Shown one piece after another: positions 3,173 to 64,000 of a stretch of DNA of 64,000 nucleotides; position 1 is the stretch's first letter, and each line of letters starts with the position of its first letter. The DNA is from a virus. The notes beneath the pieces are model-generated. The model did not search any database, was not told the origin of the DNA, and saw only the letters and a list, made by a program, of their open reading frames with translations. The stretch lies in the IMG/VR virus record IMGVR_UViG_3300037465_000316; one strand, 5' to 3'. A program made the translations under genes and the position numbers.

Positions 3173-4291
3173 ATGGCATTCAAATCATTCAAGGAAGTTA
3201 AAAAGGTTAATGCGTTACTTGGTGAGCCACTGCTGGTCTGGTTGTCGGCGCCAGCAGCTACCGGGAAGAGCACTCTCACTCTCGACTTCTTCCGAACCCT
3301 GTGTGTGAACGGGAGCATTGGGATTCTTATCCCGATGGATCACCGGCCTGCCATTTTCGAGGAATTGTTTGAGAAAGAGGGAGTGCCTGTTTATCCTGTA
3401 GACCCGGACCCAACCAAGTGGAACAACGAAGATGCAATCCTTAAGGCGCTGCGAACCAATTTACCCGGCTCCGGGGCAAATGCCGTTGCCTGGGATAGCG
3501 TCACACCACGATTTCGGGAGATCATTGCCGAGGCTCAGACTGTGGCAGAATTGACGCCAGAGGAGCGCAAGGCATTGACCGGCAACTCCAATAAAATCAG
3601 TGCTTATCAACCGAAAGCTCTATTCATGGAGAAGGTTGCTGCTGTGGCAACCTATGGGCTTAATACCATCTGGATCAGCCATGAGCATGAAGGCAAGGAT
3701 AAAGACGCCAAAGACGTAATGAAGACCTCTATTACCAACACGGAGATTAAGAAGTTCCGACGGAACTTGAATCTGCATCTCCGTACCGGGGTTGAGGGTG
3801 GCCGCTACTACGTCGAGATCGTGTGGGCCCGGGACCGGCAAGCACTGGCTGGAAAAAAGCTGTACGACGAACAGGGCTTGTTCAAGGGGATGTGGAATCG
3901 CATCATTGCCGAGTTCTCTGACGCGCCTGTGGTCCTGTGGGACCAAGTAAAATACTGGTCATCACCTGATGATGCCATCACCGCGGCAATGGAGCAATTT
4001 GTTATCGGGCCGAATGGGGAGCAAATTCTGCCGTTCAATGAAATGAACCATGCCGAGAATGCGTACAATAAACTAAAGAAGGAGGTAGTTCTTCCCTTGA
4101 TGACACCCGCGTGGAAGTCCAAGAATGCCAAAAACCCCCACGCAGCTGCCGAACTCATGGCTACCCACTGGAAGGCCGAGGTCGAGAAGCGGCTGCAAGC
4201 CCGGCTGCTTGAGGCCACCGGCGAACAACTTGAGCCAGCCGAACCTCCTGCTGAAGAACCTGCCGAGCAGCAGCCTGAGTTTACCTTTTAA
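3173..4291 (+). CDS. AAA-family ATPase, Sak4/AAA_24-like recombination protein
   Basis: Walker A APAATGKS, Walker B AWDSVT, WISHE; ATG at 3173 follows GAGGTG RBS and the upstream stop. Confidence 0.7.
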   Translation: MAFKSFKEVKKVNALLGEPLLVWLSAPAATGKSTLTLDFFRTLCVNGSIGILIPMDHRPAIFEELFEKEGVPVYPVDPDPTKWNNEDAILKALRTNLPGSGANAVAWDSVTPRFREIIAEAQTVAELTPEERKALTGNSNKISAYQPKALFMEKVAAVATYGLNTIWISHEHEGKDKDAKDVMKTSITNTEIKKFRRNLNLHLRTGVEGGRYYVEIVWARDRQALAGKKLYDEQGLFKGMWNRIIAEFSDAPVVLWDQVKYWSSPDDAITAAMEQFVIGPNGEQILPFNEMNHAENAYNKLKKEVVLPLMTPAWKSKNAKNPHAAAELMATHWKAEVEKRLQARLLEATGEQLEPAEPPAEEPAEQQPEFTF

Positions 4292-7869: not shown

Positions 7870-9054
7870 TTAAGGTATCTCCCAAAAATTGCCAGCAACA
7901 TGCCAAACATCAGTGCCTGGATCAGCGACTGGAAAAAGATAGCGTGTTCTATTTTCAACTTGGGTTAAGCTCGCCTCCCCAAAGTCAAATTCAACCAGGA
8001 ATGAGAAGGGGGCAAGTGTCCAACGTTGCAGCTTTAGCCGGTTGATACCACCTTTACGTTGCCATAAAGTCACGAACAAATATGTACTATTCATATCGGC
8101 CCAAATAGGCATAAGCTCATCCTGGCTATCAGATCGGAGAATACACTCCGTCCAGAGGCCGCCATTATCCAGAGTTAGCCACATCGAGCCGCGTTGAAGC
8201 GGCCCAGCCGCTTCCCATTTCCCCAGGGTAACAATAAAGCTGTCATTACCCAAGACCTGGATGAAGCTGACATCATCAATCGTAGGTGGAGTTCCATCAC
8301 CCCAGGTATTGGCGACCGCTCCAGGTGGTATATCAAGCCAATTGGCGCCGTTGCTCAGGGATTTTTGAACTATACCATCACTCACCCTCCAACGGGTGTA
8401 ACTGACCGGCGTAATATGGCCGTGGTGGTAATCATCCCCAAAAGTGATGATAGGCATGCCGAGCAGATACTCTGGATCAGTTACCCAGGCGGACAGTTCC
8501 CCCACCTCGACGCCAGAAATCGCTCGGACCGCAAAGTAGACACGGGGTGGCGTACCAGTATCGAAAGCGATTTGATGCTCGCGGTAACTGGTTTCGGCAA
8601 TTTGGGTTGGCCCAATTCCATCAGGGTTAGTAGCCCAGAATATCTGATAACTGGTAGCTCCGGGGACTTCTGACCAGCGAATTGTCCATTCGCTGTCCGG
8701 ACAGGATGCGTCGGCGCTCGCGTAGCTGGGAGGCTTGGGAATATTAGTTCCCTGGCCAGCCACATCAGTGCAATTGAATTGAGGCAGAATGTCGGTCAGA
8801 ATGAACCGCTGCTTATTCTGGCTGCCATCACGTTCATAACGGCTGCTGATCTTACAGAACAGACCGGGCCGAAGAGTTTTTCTATTTTGCCTGATAAGGT
8901 CGGGTATGAGTACGTCTCTCAGCACTCGCCGAGGCGAGCCGGCCAGCCTGACATGAACGTGATCGTCGAATACGGCTGTAATAACTCCGTCGTAAGCGTG
9001 GTCGCCGGGCGGCCGGGTGAGTTGGTCTACATACTCGAACTTTGTTCTCTTCAT
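7870..9054 (-). CDS. minor tail protein with fibronectin type III-like domain
   Basis: IRWSEVPGATSYQIFW...YFAVRAISG..GELS FN3 pattern; Asp-box-like motifs. Confidence 0.65.
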   Translation of the reverse strand: MKRTKFEYVDQLTRPPGDHAYDGVITAVFDDHVHVRLAGSPRRVLRDVLIPDLIRQNRKTLRPGLFCKISSRYERDGSQNKQRFILTDILPQFNCTDVAGQGTNIPKPPSYASADASCPDSEWTIRWSEVPGATSYQIFWATNPDGIGPTQIAETSYREHQIAFDTGTPPRVYFAVRAISGVEVGELSAWVTDPEYLLGMPIITFGDDYHHGHITPVSYTRWRVSDGIVQKSLSNGANWLDIPPGAVANTWGDGTPPTIDDVSFIQVLGNDSFIVTLGKWEAAGPLQRGSMWLTLDNGGLWTECILRSDSQDELMPIWADMNSTYLFVTLWQRKGGINRLKLQRWTLAPFSFLVEFDFGEASLTQVENRTRYLFPVADPGTDVWHVAGNFWEIP

Positions 9055-23903: not shown

Positions 23904-24554
23904 TTATTTCACCGCGCAGGTGACTGAACCGCTCCCGTGGGCAACAACATAGTAAGTGCCTGGTGGAACGCTTGGCACGGTGCTATCCAGAGAAAAAGAC
24001 CCGACTTTAGTTACAGTCCCGCCTCCTAACGAAGCTGTAACGGTTGCGGTCGTCGCCACACAGGTGGCCTGCAAAGTATCTACCTGGTTGGTGAAAGTAA
24101 CAGTATAAACCTCACCATTTGAGAAGCCATAACCAGAGACATTGAGAGGCGCACCCGCTGTGCCACTGGCGGCGCTTGTCACCAACGCCGGCTTCAAGCT
24201 CGCAGTGTAACTGGAGTTTGCAGAATTGTTATCGTTTTTGGCCTTAACGGTCACATTCCCGAATAAAATGGAGCGAGGTATCTGGATACTCGACGTAAAC
24301 ACCCCACTTCCATTTGCCGGACCTCTGGCCATCCGCACGTTATTAAGTTGAATCTCAACCGTCTCCCCGGCTGCGAAACCAGAGGCGGTAAAAACGTGCG
24401 TCTCAATGGGCTTGATAGTCACCGGGCCGGTGATCGCTGCGGCTGTAACCTCGAACTGCTGCGCCGGCTGCGCCTGGACCTCCGGGAGCATCCATAATGC
24501 ACCCGTAATCATCCCCAGCGCCAGTATAAGTGTGGTTAATAGTTTTTTGAACAT
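23904..24554 (-). CDS. secreted protein with signal peptide and two Ig-like repeats
   Basis: MFKKLLTTLILALGMITGALW..VQA signal; repeats ASGFAAGETV..G.F..SIQIP..G and GYGFSNGEVY..GSF...VP..PGTY. Confidence 0.7.
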   Translation of the reverse strand: MFKKLLTTLILALGMITGALWMLPEVQAQPAQQFEVTAAAITGPVTIKPIETHVFTASGFAAGETVEIQLNNVRMARGPANGSGVFTSSIQIPRSILFGNVTVKAKNDNNSANSSYTASLKPALVTSAASGTAGAPLNVSGYGFSNGEVYTVTFTNQVDTLQATCVATTATVTASLGGGTVTKVGSFSLDSTVPSVPPGTYYVVAHGSGSVTCAVK

Positions 24555-24602
24555 GAAAGTCTCCTTAAACTAATGAATAAATGGCGGCTCAGGTTTCAGA
24601 AC

Positions 24603-25688
24603 TTAGGCTACGGGCATCGGGTAAGATGCTTGAGCATTACTCAGGATAAACTTGAAATAGTCCTCGGCCAGCGTTGAATCTGCCTCGACAGCAACCCCGG
24701 TTACGTTCATCATTAGTAATTCATCTCCACTGAGCTGGATAGGGTCATATCGCCAATCAACCTTTGGAGCTTCGATACGAAACGTCCAGGGGAATGGGAC
24801 TGCATCACTGATATCGCAGGGTGATTCAACCTCAAGCTGTAAATCTGTATATTCACAACATGGTCGGAAGTCCAGAGTGGCCGGATCGCCGCCATTGATG
24901 ATGAACCTATATAAGTCAGGGTTATCCCACTTATAGGTAAACTCGATGGTCAGACTACGCTGCCGAGTAGTGAAATCCTCCGGGAAGTAACTCCCAATTA
25001 CCCGCTCTTCCTGGGGAGTGGACGTGTTGTTATTTAGCGTCACCCTGGCGTTTGTAGCTGGCAGAGGCACACCCCCACCAAAGACCCAATTGGGCAGTAG
25101 TAGACCACTACCCTTCATCACCATAGGCACAGAGTCGTAATTCTCCGTAACATCTGCCCAGGCGAATAGATCGGGGGCGTTATCGAATAAGAACTCCCTG
25201 CCGAGAATTTGAAGATCAGTAGATAGTGGTCCCACTTGGGGGTAGTTAATAACCATCGTCGGGATAATACAGTCTTTTCCCGTTTCGCCGAGGTCCTTAG
25301 TAGTGTCCCGGCCGGGAATCACCCGCCGAAATCCCATGAACGGGATAAAGATAGCATTACCCGGTTTTTGGGTAAATGTGTGGGTGAAGCCAGTAGTCGC
25401 ATTGGCGACACTGGAGCAGTTACCCGCAGCTCCGAGCAAAAGCCAGCCAAAGTCTCCCTCTAGCCGGGGCTGAAGGCTAACCCGGCCTCCGAACCCGGCC
25501 CCGGTCTTATATGCCCCTGTTGGGTTATTAATCCCCGAAATCTCCGGGGGCGCTACTTCTTTCTGAACATCTGGCCCGTATCCGGCAAACAAGGCTTTGT
25601 GGCGATACCAGGTCCCTACCGGCTGGCCCTTCTCACCATTCGCCTGTATCCCGAATCCGAACAGTCCTGCTTGTGCTGTTACAGACAT
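24603..25688 (-). CDS. major tail tube protein
   Basis: 361 aa, beta-rich, between neck genes and chaperones; FTHTFTQ motif. Confidence 0.75.
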   Translation of the reverse strand: MSVTAQAGLFGFGIQANGEKGQPVGTWYRHKALFAGYGPDVQKEVAPPEISGINNPTGAYKTGAGFGGRVSLQPRLEGDFGWLLLGAAGNCSSVANATTGFTHTFTQKPGNAIFIPFMGFRRVIPGRDTTKDLGETGKDCIIPTMVINYPQVGPLSTDLQILGREFLFDNAPDLFAWADVTENYDSVPMVMKGSGLLLPNWVFGGGVPLPATNARVTLNNNTSTPQEERVIGSYFPEDFTTRQRSLTIEFTYKWDNPDLYRFIINGGDPATLDFRPCCEYTDLQLEVESPCDISDAVPFPWTFRIEAPKVDWRYDPIQLSGDELLMMNVTGVAVEADSTLAEDYFKFILSNAQASYPMPVA

Positions 25689-25694
25689 GTTTAG

Positions 25695-25725
25695 ATCTCC
25701 CTTTAATTATGAGGCTCAGGGAGAT
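25695..25725 (-). promoter_or_regulatory. SD-sequestering hairpin in the tail tube leader
   Basis: mRNA AUCUCCC-UGAGCCUCAUAAUUAAA-GGGAGAU, then 6 nt to AUG. Confidence 0.7.
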
Positions 25726-25732
25726 TTTTTTG

Positions 25733-26509
25733 TCAGACAGTAACCCTTGAGAATCTGACCTCAAGTTTTCTGATTTTGACCATGCTTTCTTCAGATACAC
25801 GCCGGGCGAATTTGGCGTTAAACTGTTTGAGCTGGTCGAGTCGGCGCCCGTCTCGTTGAAGATAAGCCACCGCGTCAGCCCAGGTTTTGGGTGATGCTTT
25901 GGCATCCACGAGTTGGACGCCAGACGCCGGACTCAGAGAATAATAACCGCCAATGTTAGTGGCCAGCACCGCAGCGCCGGCATACATCACAGAAAGCGGA
26001 TATGCGACAGAGTTGATCGAGTTTGGTATGCTCGGCAAAAGAAGAATGTCGCACCTGGCCGCAAAGTCGTCAAAGTCGAGAGCAATTTCACACTCAAGAC
26101 CGTCAATTGGCTCACCATAGATCAAGAAGATTTCCTTAAGGCGCTTGAGCATTTGCCTATTGCCAAAGTTGTTTAGATTCATGTCGGCTGTGTGATTAAG
26201 CAGACCGACCCGGATCGACTCATTTTGAACAGATAACTTTCGGCTGTGCCCAAACGGAGCCGAAAAAGCCAATGTGCCGCTGTAACGGCGAACAATAGAC
26301 ACCATCTGCTCAGTGTCACAGACTACCGCGTCAGCAGTACGAATCAGTTGACGCATAGCATCTGTGTTTGGATGGTAGGCTCTGGTATGATTCATGATGT
26401 CAAGCGTCAAGTCTACCACCAATGGTTGAGGCAAACTACCACTTACCTCGATGGGGTCGAATAGGGGATTTATACTTGTGCCCTCGTAAAGCATGCTTCT
26501 GACATTCAT
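25733..26509 (-). CDS. GT-B (family 4-like) glycosyltransferase
   Basis: LIRTADAVVCDT; CDILLLPS...LSVMYAGAAVLATNIGG nucleotide-sugar-binding signature. Confidence 0.65.
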   Translation of the reverse strand: MNVRSMLYEGTSINPLFDPIEVSGSLPQPLVVDLTLDIMNHTRAYHPNTDAMRQLIRTADAVVCDTEQMVSIVRRYSGTLAFSAPFGHSRKLSVQNESIRVGLLNHTADMNLNNFGNRQMLKRLKEIFLIYGEPIDGLECEIALDFDDFAARCDILLLPSIPNSINSVAYPLSVMYAGAAVLATNIGGYYSLSPASGVQLVDAKASPKTWADAVAYLQRDGRRLDQLKQFNAKFARRVSEESMVKIRKLEVRFSRVTV

Positions 26510-26527
26510 AATGATTTTCTCCTTGAG

Positions 26528-27103
26528 CTAAACTTCCAAAAAGGCTTCAAATTGAAGCCACATTTTACCCCGGTAAAGAGTTTCATCCCTAGACCCCCTG
26601 GGCAACATCCGCGTTGCCTTAACTGCATTAGACCCACGAACCAGGTGAAAACCTAGATCGTCTTTTTGTCGCAACTTGGCCAGCTTCCCTTTTCGCACAT
26701 CGGATTCTCGGACAATAGCTGCATGAATCCGTCTCAGAATAAGTTGTGATGTAACAAGCGACTGATCCCTATTAGCCCCCCGCTGCTTAAAGAAGAACGT
26801 GAAATCAACCGTATATCTGAGATTGAAATATTGGCCAAGACCCATCTCGATGTACTTGGCGCTATCATATTGGTTGTACTGTGCGCCAGGACTGGCAATT
26901 TCGGCATCGCGCCAACCATCCTCATCAGCCGGATCGTTGGGAGAAACAGAGGCGCTCAACGGAACGTCTGCAAACTCCTCCGATTTTGGCCGAATCTCAA
27001 CCAGGTCAAGCCGCGAAGAGTCTTCCCTGGGGAGGCCTGTATAAGTCTCATGGATAATATCCAGAACTGTATACATGAGATTGACGCTTAAAAGATTGGT
27101 CAC
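26528..27103 (-). CDS. neck / tail terminator-like protein
   Basis: Synteny between the adaptor and the tail tube. Confidence 0.55.
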   Translation of the reverse strand: MTNLLSVNLMYTVLDIIHETYTGLPREDSSRLDLVEIRPKSEEFADVPLSASVSPNDPADEDGWRDAEIASPGAQYNQYDSAKYIEMGLGQYFNLRYTVDFTFFFKQRGANRDQSLVTSQLILRRIHAAIVRESDVRKGKLAKLRQKDDLGFHLVRGSNAVKATRMLPRGSRDETLYRGKMWLQFEAFLEV

Positions 27104-27720
27104 TGAAAATCACCATCATCATTGCTATGAGTATTCACAATCTCGTAAAACCTGTCCCTTATCAACTCAGCGACTGCCGTAAAGGGGTTATGGGTTGGGT
27201 TGCCTGGCGCATCCTCCGGGGAAACAAACTTTCGATATCTCGCGTCAGTAATTGCTTCCCTGGTGATCGCTTGCAAACAGACATATAAGGCGCAGGCTTC
27301 ATGCGCCCACATTGGTACATGGACCGGGCTATCTTCGGCCCGGATGGATGGAAAATAGGCATCATAGATAAGATACCATTCAGCCGGAATAGGGCCGGCG
27401 ATGATAATCTTTTCCTCGATGACATAAAAGCCCTGTGCCCCACATGCAGCCATTTCCATATTGATGCGGGGCATAGCCTGGCTATTGTGAAAAATCCCCC
27501 TGACTCTGTAAAAGCAGTCAGGAGCATCAATTTCGCAGCCATCATCATACTTATAAATCCGGTGACGTTGCTGAGGTTTCATTGTGGCCAGGCGGATCTG
27601 GCCATTGTTCCACCAATTAACAACGTCACCGGGATCATATCTAGGTGTAGAGCCTTCTGGCACTTCATCATTGAGCAGAGTCAGCACCATAGGCTCTATC
27701 TCTTTCCACTTCGGAAGCAT
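27100..27720 (-). CDS. head-tail adaptor-like protein
   Basis: Directly after the capsid gene; VVNWWNNGQIRLA and HVPMWAHEACALYVC adaptor-like pattern. Confidence 0.6.
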   Translation of the reverse strand: MLPKWKEIEPMVLTLLNDEVPEGSTPRYDPGDVVNWWNNGQIRLATMKPQQRHRIYKYDDGCEIDAPDCFYRVRGIFHNSQAMPRINMEMAACGAQGFYVIEEKIIIAGPIPAEWYLIYDAYFPSIRAEDSPVHVPMWAHEACALYVCLQAITREAITDARYRKFVSPEDAPGNPTHNPFTAVAELIRDRFYEIVNTHSNDDGDFQ

Positions 27721-27732
27721 GATTGCTCCTAA

Positions 27733-29199
27733 TTACATTGCTGTGCCAGTACCCCAAGTGGGCGGCGTGCCACCGTGAAAGATAATGTGATGAAATTCGG
27801 GCATGAAGAGCTGGTATTTGAACCGGCCCTTCCAGATAAATCTGTAGATCGCCCTGGCATCATCAATTGGTGGCATCGGATAGGCCATGATTGGATCGGC
27901 CACACCATTGACCACGCTTGGACCACCAATGTAGAGCGTTACGTGAATGTGGACACCTTTTGTCACAAAGTCGCCGGCGTTAAACTCACTAAACAGCGGT
28001 TTGTCGAAGGTTATCTTGTTGCCATCCTTACCCACGATACGTCGAACGCGAGCAGTAGCCTCACGATAGTCCACCCCGTCAGGAGTAGAAACGCCAAACT
28101 CGTCGGTCGTGGTCTGGTGAATGGTGACCAAATCATTGACCGCGAACCCACTAGCGTCATCTACCTCAATCCAATGCTCAACGTTATTCTGCTGGCCGAC
28201 TTTGTAAACCTTATCAACTAAGTCAGGCGACCCACCATCACCTGGGCCATAATCCATCTGCAGGACGCCCCGGTGAATTACATCGCCACAGTTCCAGAGA
28301 ACATTGCGCCGGCTATTGATGAACCGGGTATTGGCCCACATGCCCACTTCGTACCGCATCAAGAGCTGCGGGTTGCCGTACAGGTTCGCCTCACGCCATT
28401 GGGTGTTGGCCGCTGCAATTACGGCGTTGATAGCCGATGGAGTTGTGATAGAGAACAGAGTCCCCTGCACCCCATTGGGGTTCGCAGCAAAGGGGATGTC
28501 CTCATAGGACAAATCCATCCAGACATCTCGGCCAAGATTTACATTGAACACGTCAGTGTTCAGAATGCCGGTGAACTGTGGTTTGCCGGAAGCATGGCCA
28601 TGACTAACATTGCCACCGGCGATTGTATGGAATCGCGGTCCCTCAAGAAAAGCATTTCGCGCAAGAATGTCGAGAGCAATCGTCATACTCTCTCCGAGCA
28701 TCGTTCGGGCCAGATTGACCAGTCCGGGTGTTCCCCGAAACAAGTATGCTTGTACCTGGTCGTCGTACTCGTGTAGAGCGACCTTATCTGCATAATCAGC
28801 AAACACGATGGTCTTTTCAAACGTATCCGTGTAATTGCTAGAAAACCAGATCTGTCGCCGACCGACTTCCCCATAATTCGGCTCCATCGCAAAGACACCC
28901 TTGAAGGTCATACTTTCGCCTATACTGCCGTTAGGGTTACGCATGGCGATTTGGGTGGGCACAAGAGCGCGGTAAACGCTGTCTAGCCGAAACTTCTCCA
29001 ATAGAGCCAACTGAACGGGAATATCGCGCAGACTTTCGATCTGATACCACATATTGTCCGAGTATAAACCCGGACCCTGAGCCGCATTCAACGGGTTGAC
29101 CAGGGTCAGCGGCTCCTGAGAGCCATGTTCTAGCCTGGTCGAGTATGCGTGCGAGGACGCTGCCGTCCCCGTACCTGGATAAACAAAATTTACTGGCAT
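27733..29199 (-). CDS. major capsid protein (N4-gp56-like)
   Basis: 488 aa after the scaffold; LGESMTIALDILARNAF, ITTP..I..V, YEVGMWANTRFI, YIGG motifs. Confidence 0.85.
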   Translation of the reverse strand: MPVNFVYPGTGTAASSHAYSTRLEHGSQEPLTLVNPLNAAQGPGLYSDNMWYQIESLRDIPVQLALLEKFRLDSVYRALVPTQIAMRNPNGSIGESMTFKGVFAMEPNYGEVGRRQIWFSSNYTDTFEKTIVFADYADKVALHEYDDQVQAYLFRGTPGLVNLARTMLGESMTIALDILARNAFLEGPRFHTIAGGNVSHGHASGKPQFTGILNTDVFNVNLGRDVWMDLSYEDIPFAANPNGVQGTLFSITTPSAINAVIAAANTQWREANLYGNPQLLMRYEVGMWANTRFINSRRNVLWNCGDVIHRGVLQMDYGPGDGGSPDLVDKVYKVGQQNNVEHWIEVDDASGFAVNDLVTIHQTTTDEFGVSTPDGVDYREATARVRRIVGKDGNKITFDKPLFSEFNAGDFVTKGVHIHVTLYIGGPSVVNGVADPIMAYPMPPIDDARAIYRFIWKGRFKYQLFMPEFHHIIFHGGTPPTWGTGTAM

Positions 29200-29202
29200 T
29201 TT

Positions 29203-29241
29203 ATATTTACTCCTTATGAATTAGGCTCAGGGAGTAAATAT
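29203..29241 (-). promoter_or_regulatory. SD-sequestering hairpin in the capsid leader
   Basis: mRNA AUAUUUACUCC-CUGAGCCUAAUUCAUAA-GGAGUAAAUAU, then 3 nt to AUG. Confidence 0.75.
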
Positions 29242-30176: not shown

Positions 30177-31873
30177 TGATCCTCCCCTTTTGCCCGGCCA
30201 CCAGCAGCTTGCGCCCTATTTGTCCGATCAGATGGCGGCTTGTTTTTTGCCTTCTCCTCTTCTTTAACGGCGATAGTTCGCTCATTAAGGGGTGCTTGTT
30301 CCTCCATTCGTTTGGTAGCCTCTTCGGCCAGCTTCTGGCGATGTTTGTCAATTCGATTAAGTTCCTCTTCCAATTCGTCAGAACCATCCAGCCTGCGGAT
30401 TGCTGTCTCTGGCGAGATAAGCTCAACCGAAATTCTCTGAACAATCTCATTGACTAAATCGGCCCGGTCGTCGGGAAGCATCGGCGGCCAGTGGGTTTTT
30501 TGGCCTACCAGAACGGTTTCAATCATCTCCGGGTTAACTGCGTCTATCCCAAGAGAGGCTACCCCGTTGATATTTGAACCAAGCTGGCGTTTGCTGTAAG
30601 CAATCACGAAGGCAATATAGTTCAAATACTTGAGGCCGGTGCTAAAGCTCTTGCGGTAACGTATACCAACGTTTGTGGCCGGCCACATCATATATTTGAG
30701 GGTAAGGGCGCTGCGGATACTGGCATCAGTTCGGCCAAAGGCAACATCCGGCATGTTGGAATGTTCTCTCGTCATACGTATCATCTCCTCTGTTACGAGG
30801 TCAATCATAGGGTCAGTCAGTTCAGCGCCCTCCAGTCTGCCAACCTCCGGGGTGTCCTGGCCATGCTGGTTCATCCCTAAGTCTATAAATTCTGATCTAC
30901 TCTTCTTATCAAGGCCCTGGATACCTTTCATGCGGTTTCTGACCCAGGGCTGCTGATGCATGGCATCAGCAAGCCCCTCACCCAAATCAGCCAAGCCATT
31001 ATTGATTTCATTTTGGGGTCCGATTAGACCGGGCACCAGGCTGTCGCCATAAAAGTCACCGGCGCGAAGCCTCGGAATGTAAATGTATGGTATGACCTTA
31101 TGGCCCAAAACAGGATCAAGAAATGGGTTCTCTCCTGCCATTTCTGTCCCATCGGGCCACCGCCCAATCTGTTGGTCAATCTTGATAAAATATTCAGATT
31201 CGTCCCAATGCTCATGTACCGAGACGTAATCCGGTTGACCAGGGACTTCTGCTGTAATGCCAGAATTACCAAATAGATCAATCCTGTATCTGGCTACCGC
31301 TGTAGGTTTGGGGATTTGGTGGTAAACATCCATGCTTACCAGTCTGTTGTAGTCATTGCCATCCCAGACCGGGAAACATGCGCGGGGGTCAATAGAGAAG
31401 TAGCGAATCGGCCACTTCTTTCTGAGAGGAGTCCAGGCTACGTGCCAATAGCACCCGCCGAAAACTTGTTGAAAGAGACTTTGTTCAAGCAAAGTCTCAT
31501 CTCCATTGTTAATAGACCAAAGCATATTCGATGCTTTGGTAACTTTATTGGCTGTGTCTTTATCTATTGCTGGATTATTTCTGACGCCGAATTGGATAAT
31601 GCTATTGTCGTCAGAAAACTGCCCAAGAAGAACAGCGGCGTGGTTGATGACGGTTGAGCGAACAATGTTCAGTTTAACCGGATATAGCTCAACACCGTTT
31701 TTCTTCTTGTTCAGAACATAGCCCTTGTAATACGACCACATCTGGTCATAATGAGCAGTCTGTTCAGACCAGGCTATGTTGGGATAATCTTCCGGTGTAA
31801 GCCGAAGAGGATTATCTGCAAAAACGGATAAAGGAACCGCCAGATTTGATGGTGAAGACAGTAGTCCAGCCAT
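30173..31873 (-). CDS. portal protein (SPP1 gp6-like)
   Basis: 566 aa after terminase; IPYIYIP, QNEINNGLAD, IRSALTLKYM motifs. Confidence 0.85.
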   Translation of the reverse strand: MAGLLSSPSNLAVPLSVFADNPLRLTPEDYPNIAWSEQTAHYDQMWSYYKGYVLNKKKNGVELYPVKLNIVRSTVINHAAVLLGQFSDDNSIIQFGVRNNPAIDKDTANKVTKASNMLWSINNGDETLLEQSLFQQVFGGCYWHVAWTPLRKKWPIRYFSIDPRACFPVWDGNDYNRLVSMDVYHQIPKPTAVARYRIDLFGNSGITAEVPGQPDYVSVHEHWDESEYFIKIDQQIGRWPDGTEMAGENPFLDPVLGHKVIPYIYIPRLRAGDFYGDSLVPGLIGPQNEINNGLADLGEGLADAMHQQPWVRNRMKGIQGLDKKSRSEFIDLGMNQHGQDTPEVGRLEGAELTDPMIDLVTEEMIRMTREHSNMPDVAFGRTDASIRSALTLKYMMWPATNVGIRYRKSFSTGLKYLNYIAFVIAYSKRQLGSNINGVASLGIDAVNPEMIETVLVGQKTHWPPMLPDDRADLVNEIVQRISVELISPETAIRRLDGSDELEEELNRIDKHRQKLAEEATKRMEEQAPLNERTIAVKEEEKAKNKPPSDRTNRAQAAGGRAKGEDQ

Positions 31874-31882
31874 AGTGTGGCT

Positions 31883-31911
31883 AGACTATCAAATTTTGCA
31901 ATCAAACTCAA
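31883..31911 (-). promoter_or_regulatory. late-class promoter for portal
   Basis: TTGAGTTTG (-35)-17 nt-TAGTCT. Confidence 0.65.
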
Positions 31912-47191: not shown

Positions 47192-47404
47192 GTGATACAC
47201 AAACACACAATCACAGTGGTTAGTGGTAATGGCCAGGTCAACACCATACAGGAGAATAGCCTTATGGTAGAGGACAGGGTCGGCCAGGTGATGGTGAATA
47301 GCCAGGCTCAGATGGTCACGGTCAAAGGGCCTGACCAGAAGGTAGAGGCTATCTACTTCCGTAGGGGCAGCACCTGGGGCAAGGTAGATTGTGGCAGATG
47401 CTAG
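47192..47404 (+). CDS. hypothetical protein
   Basis: GAGGAGG RBS before GTG. Confidence 0.55.
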   Translation: MIHKHTITVVSGNGQVNTIQENSLMVEDRVGQVMVNSQAQMVTVKGPDQKVEAIYFRRGSTWGKVDCGRC

Positions 47405-47472
47405 GGACAATCCCGTGAAAGCCGGGATCAGGCGAGAGCCTGCTCCGCTCAAATCTGAAAGGAGACTGCGCG

Positions 47473-58753: not shown

Positions 58754-58822
58754 ACTTTAACGAATTTTAGACGCAAACTCAATAGAAAATCTATTGAGTT
58801 TGCTCCTGGAATTTGCTAACGT
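58754..58822. promoter_or_regulatory. back-to-back late-class promoters
   Basis: Inverted repeat GCAAACTCAATAG-AAAAT-CTATTGAGTTTGC (58773-58803); minus TTGAGT-17-TAAAGT; plus TTGAGT-17-TAACGT. Confidence 0.75.
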
Positions 58823-58828
58823 AGTTCC

Positions 58829-58948
58829 AGGCTCAGGGTGAATGGCTCGGCCAAGAAAACACCCGGCATGGATGACCGGGCTGGCCGAGCCTAAATTACT
58901 AAGGCGCTTCGCGCCTCTCAAAAGCGACCTCACCAGGTCGCTTTTTTT
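58829..58948 (+). ncRNA. candidate structured small RNA (~120 nt)
   Basis: Bounded by a promoter and terminator, no ORF. Stems GGCTCGGCCA/TGGCCGAGCC, CCCGG/CCGGG, AGGCGC/GCGCCT. Confidence 0.7.
58920..58948 (+). terminator. intrinsic terminator
   Basis: AAAAGCGACCT-CACC-AGGTCGC followed by T7. Confidence 0.85.
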
Positions 58949-58957
58949 GTTAAACTA

Positions 58958-59587: not shown

Positions 59588-60137
59588 TGTTTTATACGAC
59601 AAAAACAAAAAGCCGCGTTACATCCTACCCTGCGCGGCCTACGCCAAGAACAGGGCAGGAGATACTGTCTACTTCGAGATAGTCTCGAACGCAGTCCAGC
59701 CGGTCAATGCGTTTTGGGCTAACATTCGCTGTAACTGGCGAACGACCCAACTCACACCTACCTATATCGCCATCTACGACCAGGACCATAATAAGGAAGT
59801 TCTCTCCATTGTACCCAGGGAGAAACGCCATTACGGCGCTAAGAATGGTCACCACTTCATGATGCATGAAGGGTTCGACAAGCTGCACCTGGAATATCTT
59901 CTGGGGGGCAGCCCCACCGAACCGGCGCCGATGTTTGAAACGGCGCTGCGCCAGTATGTTGAAGCCCCATTTCTCTCAGCCTGGACACAAACACTATGGG
60001 AGGCTGGCATTAACCAGAAACTAATCACAGAACTCTCAGCAGTAGGTATGACCGGCTGGAGATTAAGCAAAATCGCTAAAGGTTGGCAGGAACTCATCAT
60101 CAATCTTAGAAATCAAGGAGAATTACAACATGGCTAG
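59568..60137 (+). CDS. hypothetical protein
   Basis: 189-aa coupled ORF. Confidence 0.65.
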   Translation: MSKHLYSVLYDKNKKPRYILPCAAYAKNRAGDTVYFEIVSNAVQPVNAFWANIRCNWRTTQLTPTYIAIYDQDHNKEVLSIVPREKRHYGAKNGHHFMMHEGFDKLHLEYLLGGSPTEPAPMFETALRQYVEAPFLSAWTQTLWEAGINQKLITELSAVGMTGWRLSKIAKGWQELIINLRNQGELQHG

Positions 60138-63100
60138 ACTGGCCAGCCAGGAGAAGGCGCTTCATGTGCCCACTCCACTAACCATCATTCAAAAGATTCG
60201 CAATCATCTGCGTGGATATGGATCAAGGGGAATCATCTTTGACCCCTGCCTCGGCACAGGCGCTGCGGCAATTACCCTGGGGAAACTCCTGGGGGAAAAC
60301 TGGCAGGTGTATGGGGTCGAGCTGGATATCCAGCGAGCCGAAGAAGCTCAGAATCTACTCGGTAAGGACCATGTCATCAACGACTCGTTTCAAAATGTCC
60401 ATGTCACCGGCAATTGTGACCTCTTGTTCCTAAATCCACCCTACGATGATGACAGGGGAGAGCGGATGGAGCTTCAATTCTTGCGCTGGAGCCACAAAAC
60501 TCTCAGGAATAAAGGTGTTCTGGTCTACATTGTCAAGGATAAATTTGTTGACCAGGGCCAATACTCCGAGAAAACTCTAAAGCTTCTCAGGTCATGTGGC
60601 TTCTCCGGCGTCAAGGTGTTCAAATTCACCGAACCTGAGTACAGCGACTATCAGCAAATTGTGCTACTGGCCAAGAAGCTGGAGCATGGATATATCTCTA
60701 ACGGTGACATGGCCATAAAGGGTGAGATTGGCTGGGTCCCGAGCGGATATAGCGACTACCAGTATGTGCAGTATCTCGACCTCCGGCCGGAGAGCCAAAA
60801 CGACAATGACATGCATCTGGCCAGAAAACCAGGGAAAGAGCAGATAGTCTCTTTGGTCGCCCAACAGAATTGGTCGGCCTTTGAAACCCTGATCGGCAGC
60901 CCGGAAGATGCAGCCCGGCTCAAGCCATTGACCAGGCTCAAGGATACTAACGCAGTCCTGGTAGCCTGCTCCGGTCTGCTCAATAACGCGGTGATTGATA
61001 ACCGGGTTATCAAGGGCAGCACCTTTATCTATAAGGCAGTTAAGGGGAAAGTGGACCGCGAGGACGGGGGTACGGAGTGGAAGGTAGTTGAGGAAACGCC
61101 TACACGGTTCACTATCCTGGACTTGGCCACCAATACGATTTCATCCATAGATGAAATAAATAACAGCGATGAATACACCAGCTTTCTGGTAGCTAATGCT
61201 CGCCAGTTTGTTGAAGCCTGCGTGACGAATTACCCCCCACTTTACCGGCCGGAGCGCCACCGGCTTAATTTCAATCATCTCAACCCACCCAAAAAGCTGC
61301 CTGGCCGCGAAGATGCTCGTGGAGCTTTGCCAGAGCAGGAAGAATTGATGTCCGCTGTTATAAGAGGTCTTAATGGCCATAAAATCATAAACATCATTGC
61401 CCAGATGGGGGTAGGAAAAGCACAACCTTTAAATGCCAAAATTCTAACTCCAAAGGGGTGGAAGTTGATGGGAGAAATCAAAGTGGGTGACAAAGTATGT
61501 ACTCCCGATGGAGAAAACTCCATCGTTATCGGTGTATTCCCTCAAGGAGAAAAGGACATCTATCGAGTGACATTCAATGATGGCAGTTCTACAGAATGCT
61601 GTGAGGATCACCTGTGGGCGGTCAATTCTCCCTGGCGCAACTGGATGAATATGCCTTATCAAGTAAAGCCACTAAAGAAGTTCATGAACAACTTGGCTCA
61701 CAAAAATGGAAACCGACAAGTATTCATCCCAATGACCAAACCGGTCGAGTTCGAGGAGGAACATGATTTACCATTAGACCCATATCTTTTGGGAGTCTTA
61801 CTTGGTGATGGTGGGTTAACAGCTAATATTCCTTATCTTTCTACAGCAGATCAAGAGATTCTTGATTCTGTAAAAGCGCTACTTCCCGAAGGAGTTGAAC
61901 CAAAGTATGCAGGAAAGTATGATTATCGTCTATCCAAATCAAATGGGAAAATAGGTCATGGTCATACAAATCCACTAACCGAAATACTGCGAGATTTAGA
62001 GTTGATGGGCAAAAGCTCATGTCGAAAATTTATACCTAATATCTATATATATTCTTCAGTTAAAGATCGAATAGCCCTGCTTCAAGGTCTAATGGATACT
62101 GACGGTCATGTGGGACATAATCCAAGAGGTAGCTCATCAATTCCCGAATTTTCTACATGTTCCAGTGAACTGGCAAAAAATGTTCAGGAATTGATACAAT
62201 CTTTGGGTGGAAAAGCTGTCATAGCTACCAAAAAAACTGCCAGACAACTATCCTATAGATTACATATCAGCCTACCTTATGGAATCAACCCATTCAGACT
62301 GAAACGTAAATCCGAGACCTTTATACCCAAAACCAAATATCAACCTGTTAGGTGTGTTGAGAAAGTTGAATATATTGGGCGCAAAGAAGCGCAATGTATC
62401 TTAATTGATCACCCTGACCACCTATACATCACGGATGATTACATCGTAACTCATAATACTCTTCAATCCATCGGCATTGCCTACACCTACCTGGTGCAAA
62501 AGAAGTGGTTCAACAAGAAAATAGTGGTTCTCATCCCCTCCACGCCGGCAGACCTGGCGAACAAATGGATAGGTGAAATCAAGACAGTTCTCAAAGATCA
62601 GTTCAAGGCCGGTCAAGTGTGGGCTGCTCAAGCCGAGACGATCACCGATATTCAAAAAGCCTTTACCCGGCCGGGTATTGGCTTCATCGTCATCCGAGAA
62701 TACTACGCGAAGGCTGATAGTCCTTGGCTAACCGTAAACGCGCCGGCGCGCCGGGAGAAGATCGAAACAGGTGTGAAGGTCAGAAACCCAGAGACAGGCC
62801 AATTCGAGGATGAAAGTATAATCGTCAAGATTCGCTACTGCCCTTCTTGTCTCCAGCCCCTGACAGAGCAAGAAAAGGATATCCTCGATACCAACTTTCT
62901 CAAAGAGAAAGAGGCTGAGAACGAGGGCAAGAATCGCTACTCGGCCACCGGCCGAAAAATGCTCACCTGTCAGGATGTATACGACGATGGCAATCTTATC
63001 AAGAAAGGTTGTGGTAATGCTTTCTACACAAAGCTAAGAGCCGACTCCCTGGGGAAATATCCCCTGGCCAGGTACATCCGAAACCACTATGCCAGGCAGT

Positions 63101-64000
63101 ATTTTCTCATCGAGGATGAGTGTTTTCCTGGAAACACTCTAGTAGAAACCATTAATGGCCCTATCCCGATCAAAGATGTAAAGGTAGGGGACTTGATTCT
63201 AACCGAGAAAGACGGGGAATTAACCTACCGAAAAGTAACCCGTACTTATATCCAACCAAAGCTCAAACCAATGGTTAAGGTTACTCACTCGCATGGGAGC
63301 TTCATCTGCACATGTGACCATAAGGTTTTTGTAAGTGACAAAAAAATCGAAGCTCGACATCTTAATACAGGAGATATACTGACCCATGCACAACCGACCG
63401 TGCAAAGTTTGCGGTTGGATAGTGCTGAGATTCTGGAACAGCGAAATCGAACGGGATCTCCCTGGGGTAATCTCAAAAATTCAAGAGTGTGTAAAGTCGA
63501 GAAAATCTCAATCACCGACGAACTAATTTATGACCTTGAAGTTGAAGATACCCATAGGTACTTTGCTAATGGTATCCTGGTTTCTAATTGCCATGAGTTC
63601 AAGGCCGGTAGCTCCAATCGCGGCTATGCAGCCCAAGACCTCATTTCGGCCTGCATCTGTGGCATCCAGATGACAGGAACTTTCTTTAACGGTAAAGCCT
63701 CCGGGGTTTTCTACATGCTTTACCGTTCCTCACCAACCTTTCGTCAGATGTATGCCCACAATGAGTTGGGCAAATTCGTGGATGTCTATGGCGTCAAGGA
63801 GCAGGTGTTTAAGGAAGTTCCAGTGCGAGATGGCGGCAGCGGCTACTCTGGCTACCGCCGAATCGAAGGAGCGCCTCGTGAGGCTCCCGGTCTGCACCCC
63901 AGCCTGGCCAGCCTGATTCTCCCAAACACTGTTTTCATGTCCAAGTATGATCTCGACTTTGACCTGGCTCCCTACTCAGAGCACACTCTGTACGTCAAGC
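60130..64000 (+). CDS. N6-MTase (DUF6094-like)-SF2 helicase fusion, 3'-partial, with two inteins
   Basis: MARLASQEK; FDPCLGTG; FLNPPY; QMGVGK|T; EDE|CH. In-frame at the positions I translated; no stop seen to base 64000. Confidence 0.85.
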   Translation, partial: MARLASQEKALHVPTPLTIIQKIRNHLRGYGSRGIIFDPCLGTGAAAITLGKLLGENWQVYGVELDIQRAEEAQNLLGKDHVINDSFQNVHVTGNCDLLFLNPPYDDDRGERMELQFLRWSHKTLRNKGVLVYIVKDKFVDQGQYSEKTLKLLRSCGFSGVKVFKFTEPEYSDYQQIVLLAKKLEHGYISNGDMAIKGEIGWVPSGYSDYQYVQYLDLRPESQNDNDMHLARKPGKEQIVSLVAQQNWSAFETLIGSPEDAARLKPLTRLKDTNAVLVACSGLLNNAVIDNRVIKGSTFIYKAVKGKVDREDGGTEWKVVEETPTRFTILDLATNTISSIDEINNSDEYTSFLVANARQFVEACVTNYPPLYRPERHRLNFNHLNPPKKLPGREDARGALPEQEELMSAVIRGLNGHKIINIIAQMGVGKAQPLNAKILTPKGWKLMGEIKVGDKVCTPDGENSIVIGVFPQGEKDIYRVTFNDGSSTECCEDHLWAVNSPWRNWMNMPYQVKPLKKFMNNLAHKNGNRQVFIPMTKPVEFEEEHDLPLDPYLLGVLLGDGGLTANIPYLSTADQEILDSVKALLPEGVEPKYAGKYDYRLSKSNGKIGHGHTNPLTEILRDLELMGKSSCRKFIPNIYIYSSVKDRIALLQGLMDTDGHVGHNPRGSSSIPEFSTCSSELAKNVQELIQSLGGKAVIATKKTARQLSYRLHISLPYGINPFRLKRKSETFIPKTKYQPVRCVEKVEYIGRKEAQCILIDHPDHLYITDDYIVTHNTLQSIGIAYTYLVQKKWFNKKIVVLIPSTPADLANKWIGEIKTVLKDQFKAGQVWAAQAETITDIQKAFTRPGIGFIVIREYYAKADSPWLTVNAPARREKIETGVKVRNPETGQFEDESIIVKIRYCPSCLQPLTEQEKDILDTNFLKEKEAENEGKNRYSATGRKMLTCQDVYDDGNLIKKGCGNAFYTKLRADSLGKYPLARYIRNHYARQYFLIEDECFPGNTLVETINGPIPIKDVKVGDLILTEKDGELTYRKVTRTYIQPKLKPMVKVTHSHGSFICTCDHKVFVSDKKIEARHLNTGDILTHAQPTVQSLRLDSAEILEQRNRTGSPWGNLKNSRVCKVEKISITDELIYDLEVEDTHRYFANGILVSNCHEFKAGSSNRGYAAQDLISACICGIQMTGTFFNGKASGVFYMLYRSSPTFRQMYAHNELGKFVDVYGVKEQVFKEVPVRDGGSGYSGYRRIEGAPREAPGLHPSLASLILPNTVFMSKYDLDFDLAPYSEHTLYVK
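61420..62457 (+). mobile_element. class 3-type intein with LAGLIDADG homing endonuclease
   Basis: Ala1 (AQPLNAKILTP); block B CCEDHLW; LLGVLLGDG and LQGLMDTDG; QCI...IVTHN|T. Confidence 0.9.
63121..63588 (+). mobile_element. mini-intein in Walker B
   Basis: CFPGNTLV...CTCDHKV...YDLEVEDTHRYFANGILVSN|C; 156 aa, no endonuclease motifs. Confidence 0.85.

Follow-up and report, generated by a model that had tools for sequence, protein, structure and literature searches.

The 64,000-nucleotide (nt) stretch analysed here (the window; IMG/VR virus record IMGVR_UViG_3300037465_000316) is a contig of an uncultivated freshwater phage whose host probably belongs to the Chloroflexota. The analysis concerned the leaders of its major capsid and tail tube genes, in which the Shine-Dalgarno (SD) sequence is folded into a hairpin, and a predicted small RNA (sRNA) encoded elsewhere in the window, the 5' end of which is complementary to a motif shared by both leaders. 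Late genes occupy the minus strand at 4359-34815 and comprise, in this order, the large terminase, portal, scaffold, 488-amino-acid (aa) capsid, three small genes, the 361-aa tube, a 216-aa gene and a terminator. Homologues of the capsid protein span 100% of the query, and PF13252 occurs in the distant ones, which bear the name N4-gp56 family. The capsid protein of the window is represented in the database by a 439-aa version (90% coverage) and the homologues favour the 488-aa start at 29199, which was probably overlooked by the gene caller since its SD is buried. The 216-aa protein has a signal-peptide-like N-terminus (MFKKLLTTLILALGMITGALWMLPEVQAQ), which is unusual between a tail tube gene and the tape-measure region. 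Coordinates of the features are collected in Table 1.

Table 1. Features of the late leaders and of the predicted sRNA locus in the window.
Feature	Position	Strand	Description or basis
Capsid-leader hairpin, GGAG sequestered	29203..29241	-	11-base-pair (bp) stem, 17-nt loop; sequence, minimum free energy (MFE) and centroid fold, covarying stems in relatives
Tube-leader hairpin, GGGAG sequestered	25695..25725	-	7-8 bp stem, 17-nt loop; conserved in L003, L009, L011, L013, L014, L016
Predicted sRNA pairing site CCCUGAGCCU, capsid leader	29223..29232	-	last two C of anti-SD arm and 5' part of loop; complement of 58829-58838
Predicted sRNA pairing site CCCUGAGCCU, tube leader	25712..25721	-	three C of anti-SD arm and loop; 10-nt complement
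CCUGAGCC, leader of 216-aa gene	24586..24593	-	8-nt match to sRNA seed, no SD-masking hairpin; also in L009
Predicted ~120-nt sRNA	58829..58952	+	unpaired 5' seed (A)GGCUCAGGGUGA, long stem-loop, small hairpin, terminator hairpin (58920-58945), U7
Predicted sRNA promoter TTGAGT, 17 nt, TAACGT	58794..58822	+	TTGAGTTTG class, as three late-operon promoters
Major capsid protein gene, 488 aa	27733..29199	-	distant N4 gp56 type; homologues, after scaffold gene
Tail tube protein gene, 361 aa	24603..25688	-	PF18906 Phage_tube_2, E = 1.2e-10; phrog_290
216-aa gene ("Ig gene")	23904..24554	-	signal-peptide-like N-terminus; immunoglobulin (Ig)-like matches sub-threshold only

The capsid leader consists of a 5' arm AUAUUUACUCC (29241-29231), a 17-nt loop CUGAGCCUAAUUCAUAA (29230-29214) and a 3' arm GGAGUAAAUAU (29213-29203), followed on the minus strand by AAA and the AUG (29199). 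Its 11-bp stem is present in the MFE and centroid structures alike (-16.2 kcal/mol, z = -2.1). In the tube leader, AUCUCCC (25725-25719) and GGGAGAU (25701-25695) enclose a 17-nt loop and are followed by the tube AUG; RNAfold adds an eighth pair to this 7-bp stem (-13.9 kcal/mol, z = -1.8). These hairpins dominate the predicted ensembles of both leaders, and in the window each follows an upstream stop codon by 7-10 nt. A sequence-only reading of the window had described both hairpins with their hidden GGAG and GGGAG, and its coordinates and sequences were exact, as was its claim that one motif (CCCUGAGCCU, 29232-29223 and 25721-25712) spans the anti-SD arm and loop in each. It had also placed a weaker hairpin in the leader of the 216-aa gene, which it called the Ig gene. 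The motif CCUGAGCC is indeed present there, but the hairpin did not stand: the centroid structure is empty, folding is worse than in shuffles (z = +1.55), and the SD has no upstream arm as pairing partner. SD-masking hairpins are thus shared by the capsid and tube leaders and not by that of the 216-aa gene.

Relatives were recovered at the protein level. The window had no DNA match among 50,697 deposited phage genomes, the IMG/VR exact-peptide scan with the capsid protein alone gave no match, a scan with the capsid alignment gave only 2 loci, and, among 401 genomes from the class to which genome G001 belongs, a search for the capsid returned only G001 and one distant match. Protein searches revealed related metagenomic phages and Anaerolineales prophages, a family that shares the gene order of the window, and these formed the set for leader comparison (46-81% capsid identity for hairpin-bearing relatives; individual members are designated L001 and so on). 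An upstream arm covers the SD by pairing in nearly every capsid leader of the relatives, and likewise in their tube leaders where these are present. The 5' arms are diverse, including AUAUUUACUCC, UGUUUACUCC, GUUUAAUCUCC, CUUCACUCC, GUCUGCUUC, GAAGUUCGCUCC and others, and every one of them is matched by the 3' arm of its own leader. In a set of 19 non-redundant leaders, a mean of 5.26 of the seven positions outside the SD core are paired, as against 2.88 when arms are permuted, and 0 of 100,000 permutations reach the observed mean; the four positions adjoining the SD core each show 2 to 6 standard pair types. Because the arms diverge yet stay paired beyond the permutation level, the leader hairpin is, on comparative sequence evidence, a selected RNA structure. 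The upstream stop codon, in relatives such as L009 and L010, lies ~20 nt or more before the hairpin, at a highly variable distance.

The motif at the junction of the anti-SD arm and the loop is overrepresented and varies in a structured manner. CCTGAGCC occurs 9 times in the window where 2.6 copies were expected, a count reached in 0 of 100 shuffles, and for the 10-mer CCCUGAGCCU the expectation is ~0.1 copies over the whole window and both strands. In clade A (the window, L001, L003, L009 and the tube leader of L010), CCCUGAGCC directly follows the anti-SD arm, with near variants in L004, L005 and L015 and extra tandem copies in L001 and L010. Both leaders carry CCCUGAACC in L011, L012 and L014 and CCCCGGGUGCC in L013; the same variant word in both leaders of one genome indicates a genome-specific trans-acting factor. 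Every variant confined to one leader can still pair with the standard seed by wobble (A>G opposite U in the L010 capsid leader, CC>UU opposite GG in L015, C>U in L005), and changes that wobble pairing could not accommodate hit both leaders of a genome (G>A in L011, L012 and L014; a multi-base change in L013), so that the variation fits RNA pairing. Two checks that the sequence-only reading had called for thus gave positive results: stems differ in sequence and keep their pairing across relatives, and the loop motif is conserved or changes alike in both leaders of a genome. Its suggestion of a common translational switch for capsid and tube gains support from this pattern. Its choice of a UGAGCC loop as the key unit was revised, the significant unit being CCCUGAGCC(U), which straddles the anti-SD arm and the loop. 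Two other candidate partners for the motif were set aside. The 16S rRNA bases GGCUCAG, which we take to be universally conserved and complementary to the motif, were dropped because the variants CCCUGAACC and CCCCGGGUGCC would break the pairing, and a GGCUCAGGG within the capsid coding region (29076-29084), able to pair with the leader, was attributed to chance, with no counterpart in most relatives checked.

Another copy of the 10-mer CCCUGAGCCU lies at 58829-58838 on the strand opposite to the leaders, such that the predicted 5' end of the sRNA is its perfect 10-nt complement. On the plus strand the locus has the layout of an orphan transcription unit. The putative promoter of this RNA ends 7 nt before GGCUCAGGG, and its class, TTGAGTTTG...TAnnnT, is represented by 7 matches in the window against 1.28 expected. 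Since the late operons have promoters of this same class, both kinds of transcript would appear together. The predicted RNA folds with z = -5.4 and leaves the seed unpaired. In a search of the whole window against Rfam 15, neither the leaders nor the sRNA were assigned a family, only a twister-sister match exceeded its gathering score, and matches at the RNA locus were all sub-threshold. Two further features of this locus were observed. An inverted repeat, CCTGGAA/TTCCAGG, extends over the -10 element of the sRNA promoter up to the seed (58804-58832, plus strand), and repeats of different sequence occupy the same place in relatives (TGCAATTT/AAATTGCA in L022, CCAAA/TTTGG in L024); they could be operators of lineage-specific specificity, or hairpins. 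Furthermore, a 31-bp palindrome, GCAAACTCAATAGAAAATCTATTGAGTTTGC (58775-58805), contains two back-to-back TTGAGT -35 elements, one for the sRNA (plus strand) and one for the 215-aa gene (minus strand).

Homologues of the RNA were located through this neighbouring 215-aa gene, which is transcribed divergently, and four contexts were examined; L022 and L023 derive from the sample that also contains L009, or from its companion run, and L024 and L025 represent a separate context. At the same locus, all four have the promoter and the invariant GGCUCAGGGUGA; the RNA body has diverged and still folds, the terminator shows compensatory changes, and the first 12 nt of the RNA are invariant in L022/L023 and L024/L025. 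In L034 the same seed stands 3' of a promoter in an RNA that has no terminator and runs into a 133-aa open reading frame (8393-8880, minus strand); its seed is the 5' end of an mRNA, not of a free sRNA. In L024, the leader of the 219-aa gene beside the RNA (3840-3897, plus strand) contains CCUGAGCC fused to an anti-SD (CCUCC...GGAGG), from which the RNA may also act on its divergent neighbour. A RNAalifold consensus of three diverged RNAs was poor, paired the seed and was not used as evidence.

Two Anaerolineales genomes encode, at the same position beside a homologous gene, an RNA beginning with a different seed, GGGUUUUGUGGGAGC, and the capsid leaders of their prophages carry GCUCCCACAAACCC where the anti-SD arm meets the loop (in a fuller reading, ...GAAGUUCGCUCCCACAAACCC...GGAGCAAACUUCAAUG). 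The predicted pairing of this RNA with GCUCCCACAAA and CCC comprises 11 bp, a 1-nt bulge and 3 bp, and covers the whole anti-SD (GCUCC). Each of these two 9-Mb genomes has exactly two exact copies of the seed and two such capsid genes, and seed and capsid leader stand on the same contig in three cases (G002:C4, G002:C5 and G001:C4). The pattern GGTTTGTGGG was found in the prophage genomes only in the leaders and in one chance match within a coding region; the actual prophage RNA, located through the neighbouring gene, has one U more than this pattern. Against clade-A leaders the clade-A seed gave matches (shuffle p <= 0.002), as did the prophage seed against the prophage leaders L018-L020 (p <= 0.012); with the two sets of leaders exchanged, neither seed matched. 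The putative regulator and its target have thus changed jointly between two clades, in which the seed and site pairs are unrelated. If the leaders are targets of an sRNA, matching seeds GGUUCAGGG (L011, L012 and L014) and GGCACCCGGGG (L013) would be expected in the genomes with variant motifs. As a separate observation, runs of GGGAGTAGGTAGTAGG with their complement, forming a long imperfect palindrome, precede a capsid leader (L018:5820-5900) and recur close to where the RNA is encoded in one prophage (L028, upstream of the 212-aa gene).

We favour, with moderate confidence, an interpretation in which the sRNA unlocks capsid and tube translation by freeing the SD, i.e. anti-antisense activation. 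The two leaders would act as translational locks in which the anti-SD arm covers the SD and blocks ribosome loading, and the key would be the phage-encoded ~120-nt RNA made from a promoter of the late-operon class. Its unpaired 5' end, (A)GGCUCAGGG, would pair with CCCUGAGCC(U), a site that takes in both the uppermost G-C pairs of the anti-SD arm and the 5' portion of the loop, which is exposed. This loop portion would offer a single-stranded toehold, and growth of the duplex into the arm would displace the SD and allow translation to begin. Production of the RNA, its pairing in vivo and an outcome of activation rather than repression are all steps that we infer. Constraint folding, which was used in place of RNAcofold, is consistent with this scheme: the duplex of seed and site is worth ~ -20 kcal/mol, opening the site costs 9-13 kcal/mol, and with the site occupied the modelled probability of being unpaired rises for most SD bases from 0.00 to 0.26-0.91 and the residual leader structure weakens from ~ -17 to between -3 and -7 kcal/mol. 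The overlap of site and anti-SD arm is 2-3 nt in the window, or 5 nt with one mismatch, and 2-5 nt in clade A.

Several observations weigh against this interpretation. After pairing, a 9-bp A-U-rich stem would remain in the capsid leader and only the GG of GGAG is clearly freed; with the 10-nt site alone occupied, the third and fourth SD bases are unpaired with probabilities of only 0.09 and 0.01. The capsid hairpin also stays intact in RNAcofold, a weak objection, as base pairs formed within a closed loop are beyond this program. The leader of the 216-aa gene has the site next to an unmasked SD, so unmasking cannot be the role there, and identical sites would be expected equally from a shared promoter or protein site. 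A scan of hybridisation energy over all window positions was unspecific, with many G-C-rich sites scoring alike, and seed-match statistics were for that reason restricted to leaders. Finally, neither homologues of the 215-aa neighbour nor of the DUF6094-helicase neighbour were matched on the contigs with variant motifs, which confines the comparison of seeds and sites to two clades.

The main rival is an internal promoter of the type found in T4, in which CCCTGAGCC, situated between the 5' arm and the SD, would be a promoter element recognised by a transcription factor or RNA polymerase specific to the phage. Transcripts begun there would lack the 5' arm and be translated, read-through from upstream would be locked, and the copy at 58829-58837 would be a minus-strand promoter of the 215-aa gene. 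The T4 genes e, soc, 49 and I-TevI do have a late promoter in the region encoding the 5' strand of their SD-masking hairpins (PMC3014915), and the motif considered here always lies at or past the 5' arm. A promoter would also suit the tandem copies in L001 and L010, the presence of the motif in the hairpin-free leader of the 216-aa gene, and the orientation of the RNA-locus motif, which shares the strand of the 215-aa gene and precedes that gene by 105-170 nt in the window, L022, L024 and the prophages. The conserved loop motif resembles neither the TTGAGTTTG...TAnnnT class nor a sigma-70 promoter, and promoter prediction on the minus strand of the loops gave no promoter-like site. Against an internal promoter, the late operons are already served by the TTGAGTTTG...TAnnnT class. 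The minus-strand copy in L034 would fire antisense through a 317-aa gene, and in prophages the versions of the motif at the RNA locus and in the leader differ by an indel, which a helix tolerates and a promoter less so. The wobble compatibility of all single-leader variants likewise speaks for pairing, and a promoter leaves unexplained why, in four lineages, an opposite-strand promoter ends 6-8 nt before the motif and is followed by a structured body and a terminator. There is also the precedent of P23-45, where transcription of the late genes falls to the host RNA polymerase and the phage enzymes serve the pre-early, early and some middle genes (PMC10770324). On balance an internal promoter appears quite unlikely.

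The pairing itself may be as proposed and its outcome another: the duplex could be cut, for example by RNase III, parting the arms or stabilising the downstream mRNA, or the capsid, tube and 216-aa-gene mRNAs could be repressed or tuned. The pairing evidence is identical for these outcomes, and the site without a masked SD in the 216-aa-gene leader and the 9-bp capsid stem left after pairing would fit them. Repression would be redundant on an SD that is already locked, however, and the site always overlaps the anti-SD arm, by 2-5 nt in clade A and by all of GCUCC in the prophages, as unmasking needs; we consider these outcomes unlikely. It is also conceivable that the motif is a protein site, for a repressor or for an activator like Com of Mu, or no site at all, the hairpins being opened, for instance, by ribosomes terminating upstream and the match to the RNA being coincidental. 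Leader hairpins operated by proteins are known from Com-mom, RegA and the MS2 and PP7 coat proteins, and the upstream stops of the window, 7-10 nt before the hairpins, are placed suitably for coupling. In relatives such as L009 and L010, however, the stop is too far from the hairpin for ribosome melting, and coupling as the only mechanism was rejected on the wide variation of this distance. A protein site would leave the RNA unexplained. Coincidence is very unlikely to place a 10-nt match right at the predicted start of an RNA gene that was defined independently, and it is hard to reconcile with the recurrence of the match, in a different sequence, in the prophage clade. This group of explanations is accordingly very improbable.

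Anti-antisense activation by bacterial sRNAs is well known from DsrA, RprA and ArcZ on rpoS, GlmZ on glmS and RNAIII on hla. Systems of the DsrA-rpoS type share with the proposed unlocking by the phage sRNA an SD masked by an upstream arm, a trans-acting RNA that binds the arm and frees the SD, and a seed in the single-stranded part of a terminator-ended RNA of ~100 nt. In the window, unlike those systems, regulator and targets would all be phage genes, a single site is common to two or three leaders, the regulated products would be the virion proteins of highest abundance, and loop bases within the site would form a toehold. In phage Mu, a hairpin in the initiation region of the late gene mom is opened by the zinc-finger protein Com, which binds beside the stem. 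A trans-acting factor opens a locked phage late gene there as in the mechanism proposed here, the opener being a protein in Mu and an RNA in the window. Synthetic toehold switches have a toehold adjoining a stem that occludes initiation, which a trigger RNA invades. The leaders would likewise have a single-stranded toehold by the stem, but they are natural elements; their toehold lies within the loop and not on the 5' side of the stem, and it is the stem that contains the SD, which the synthetic switches carry in the loop.

Control of phage late genes is usually described at the level of transcription, through sigma factors, antiterminators and phage polymerases. As a post-transcriptional comparison, the hairpins of T4 e, soc, 49 and I-TevI sequester an SD or start codon so that translation awaits a later event (PMC3014915). 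Unlocking in T4 occurs by transcription starting at a late promoter inside the hairpin, whereas the element described here matches a trans-encoded RNA and the loops have no promoter of the phage class. Phage and prophage sRNAs reviewed recently include IsrK of Gifsy-1, StxS (mentioned there as StxS-rpoS), STnc6030 of BTP1, P22 sar/sas and lambda OOP/aQ (PMC12197685). The RNA of the window resembles these in being phage-encoded and in its predicted base-pairing; IsrK activates translation of a phage mRNA and STnc6030 targets a tailspike mRNA, but STnc6030 is a cis-antisense repressor and IsrK acts on a regulatory cassette (PMC12197685). This 2025 review describes no sRNA acting on capsid or tail-tube genes and does not contain the word "capsid" (PMC12197685), and full-text literature searches found no phage sRNA that unlocks capsid or tail-tube genes. 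An RNA key probably opens virion protein synthesis in this phage, a mode of control not known to have been described for phages.

We lean slightly towards a broader proposal, in which a self-encoded sRNA would be the obligatory key for capsid translation in Chloroflexota-associated phages and prophages, and in one subclade also for the tube and a third virion-region gene, with seed and lock pairs diversifying in the manner of immunity specificities. This would be the first trans-acting gating of virion morphogenesis by a phage sRNA, and a natural counterpart of the toehold switch with its toehold in a hairpin loop. If true, a phage-made RNA adds a post-transcriptional checkpoint to morphogenesis in phages of a poorly studied phylum, through a compact element with a lock of ~40 nt and a seed of ~12 nt. 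One may speculate that such a switch governs when, or above which threshold, capsid and tube are made in comparison with the portal, scaffold and terminase of the same transcript, that it keeps leaky late transcripts silent in lysogens, or that it delays exposure of capsid protein to host sensors. Furthermore, unrelated natural variants of seed and lock might act independently of one another and provide a riboregulator set that could be tested in reporter or cell-free systems.

Other features were noted in the window. The portal promoter, TTGAGT-17-TAGTCT (31873-31911, minus strand), ends 9 nt before the portal AUG, with no SD, and the arrangement is the same in L010; the portal mRNA may have no leader, or hardly any. 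A gene for a DUF6094 methyltransferase-helicase (60130-63999, plus strand) is split by intein-type modules (Hint, LAGLIDADG), and its 1095-aa homologue in L022 lacks Hint and LAGLIDADG domains. In the early region, the twister-sister ribozyme match (47393-47461, plus strand) scored 39.3 bits against an Rfam gathering score of 34 (E = 3.8e-05).

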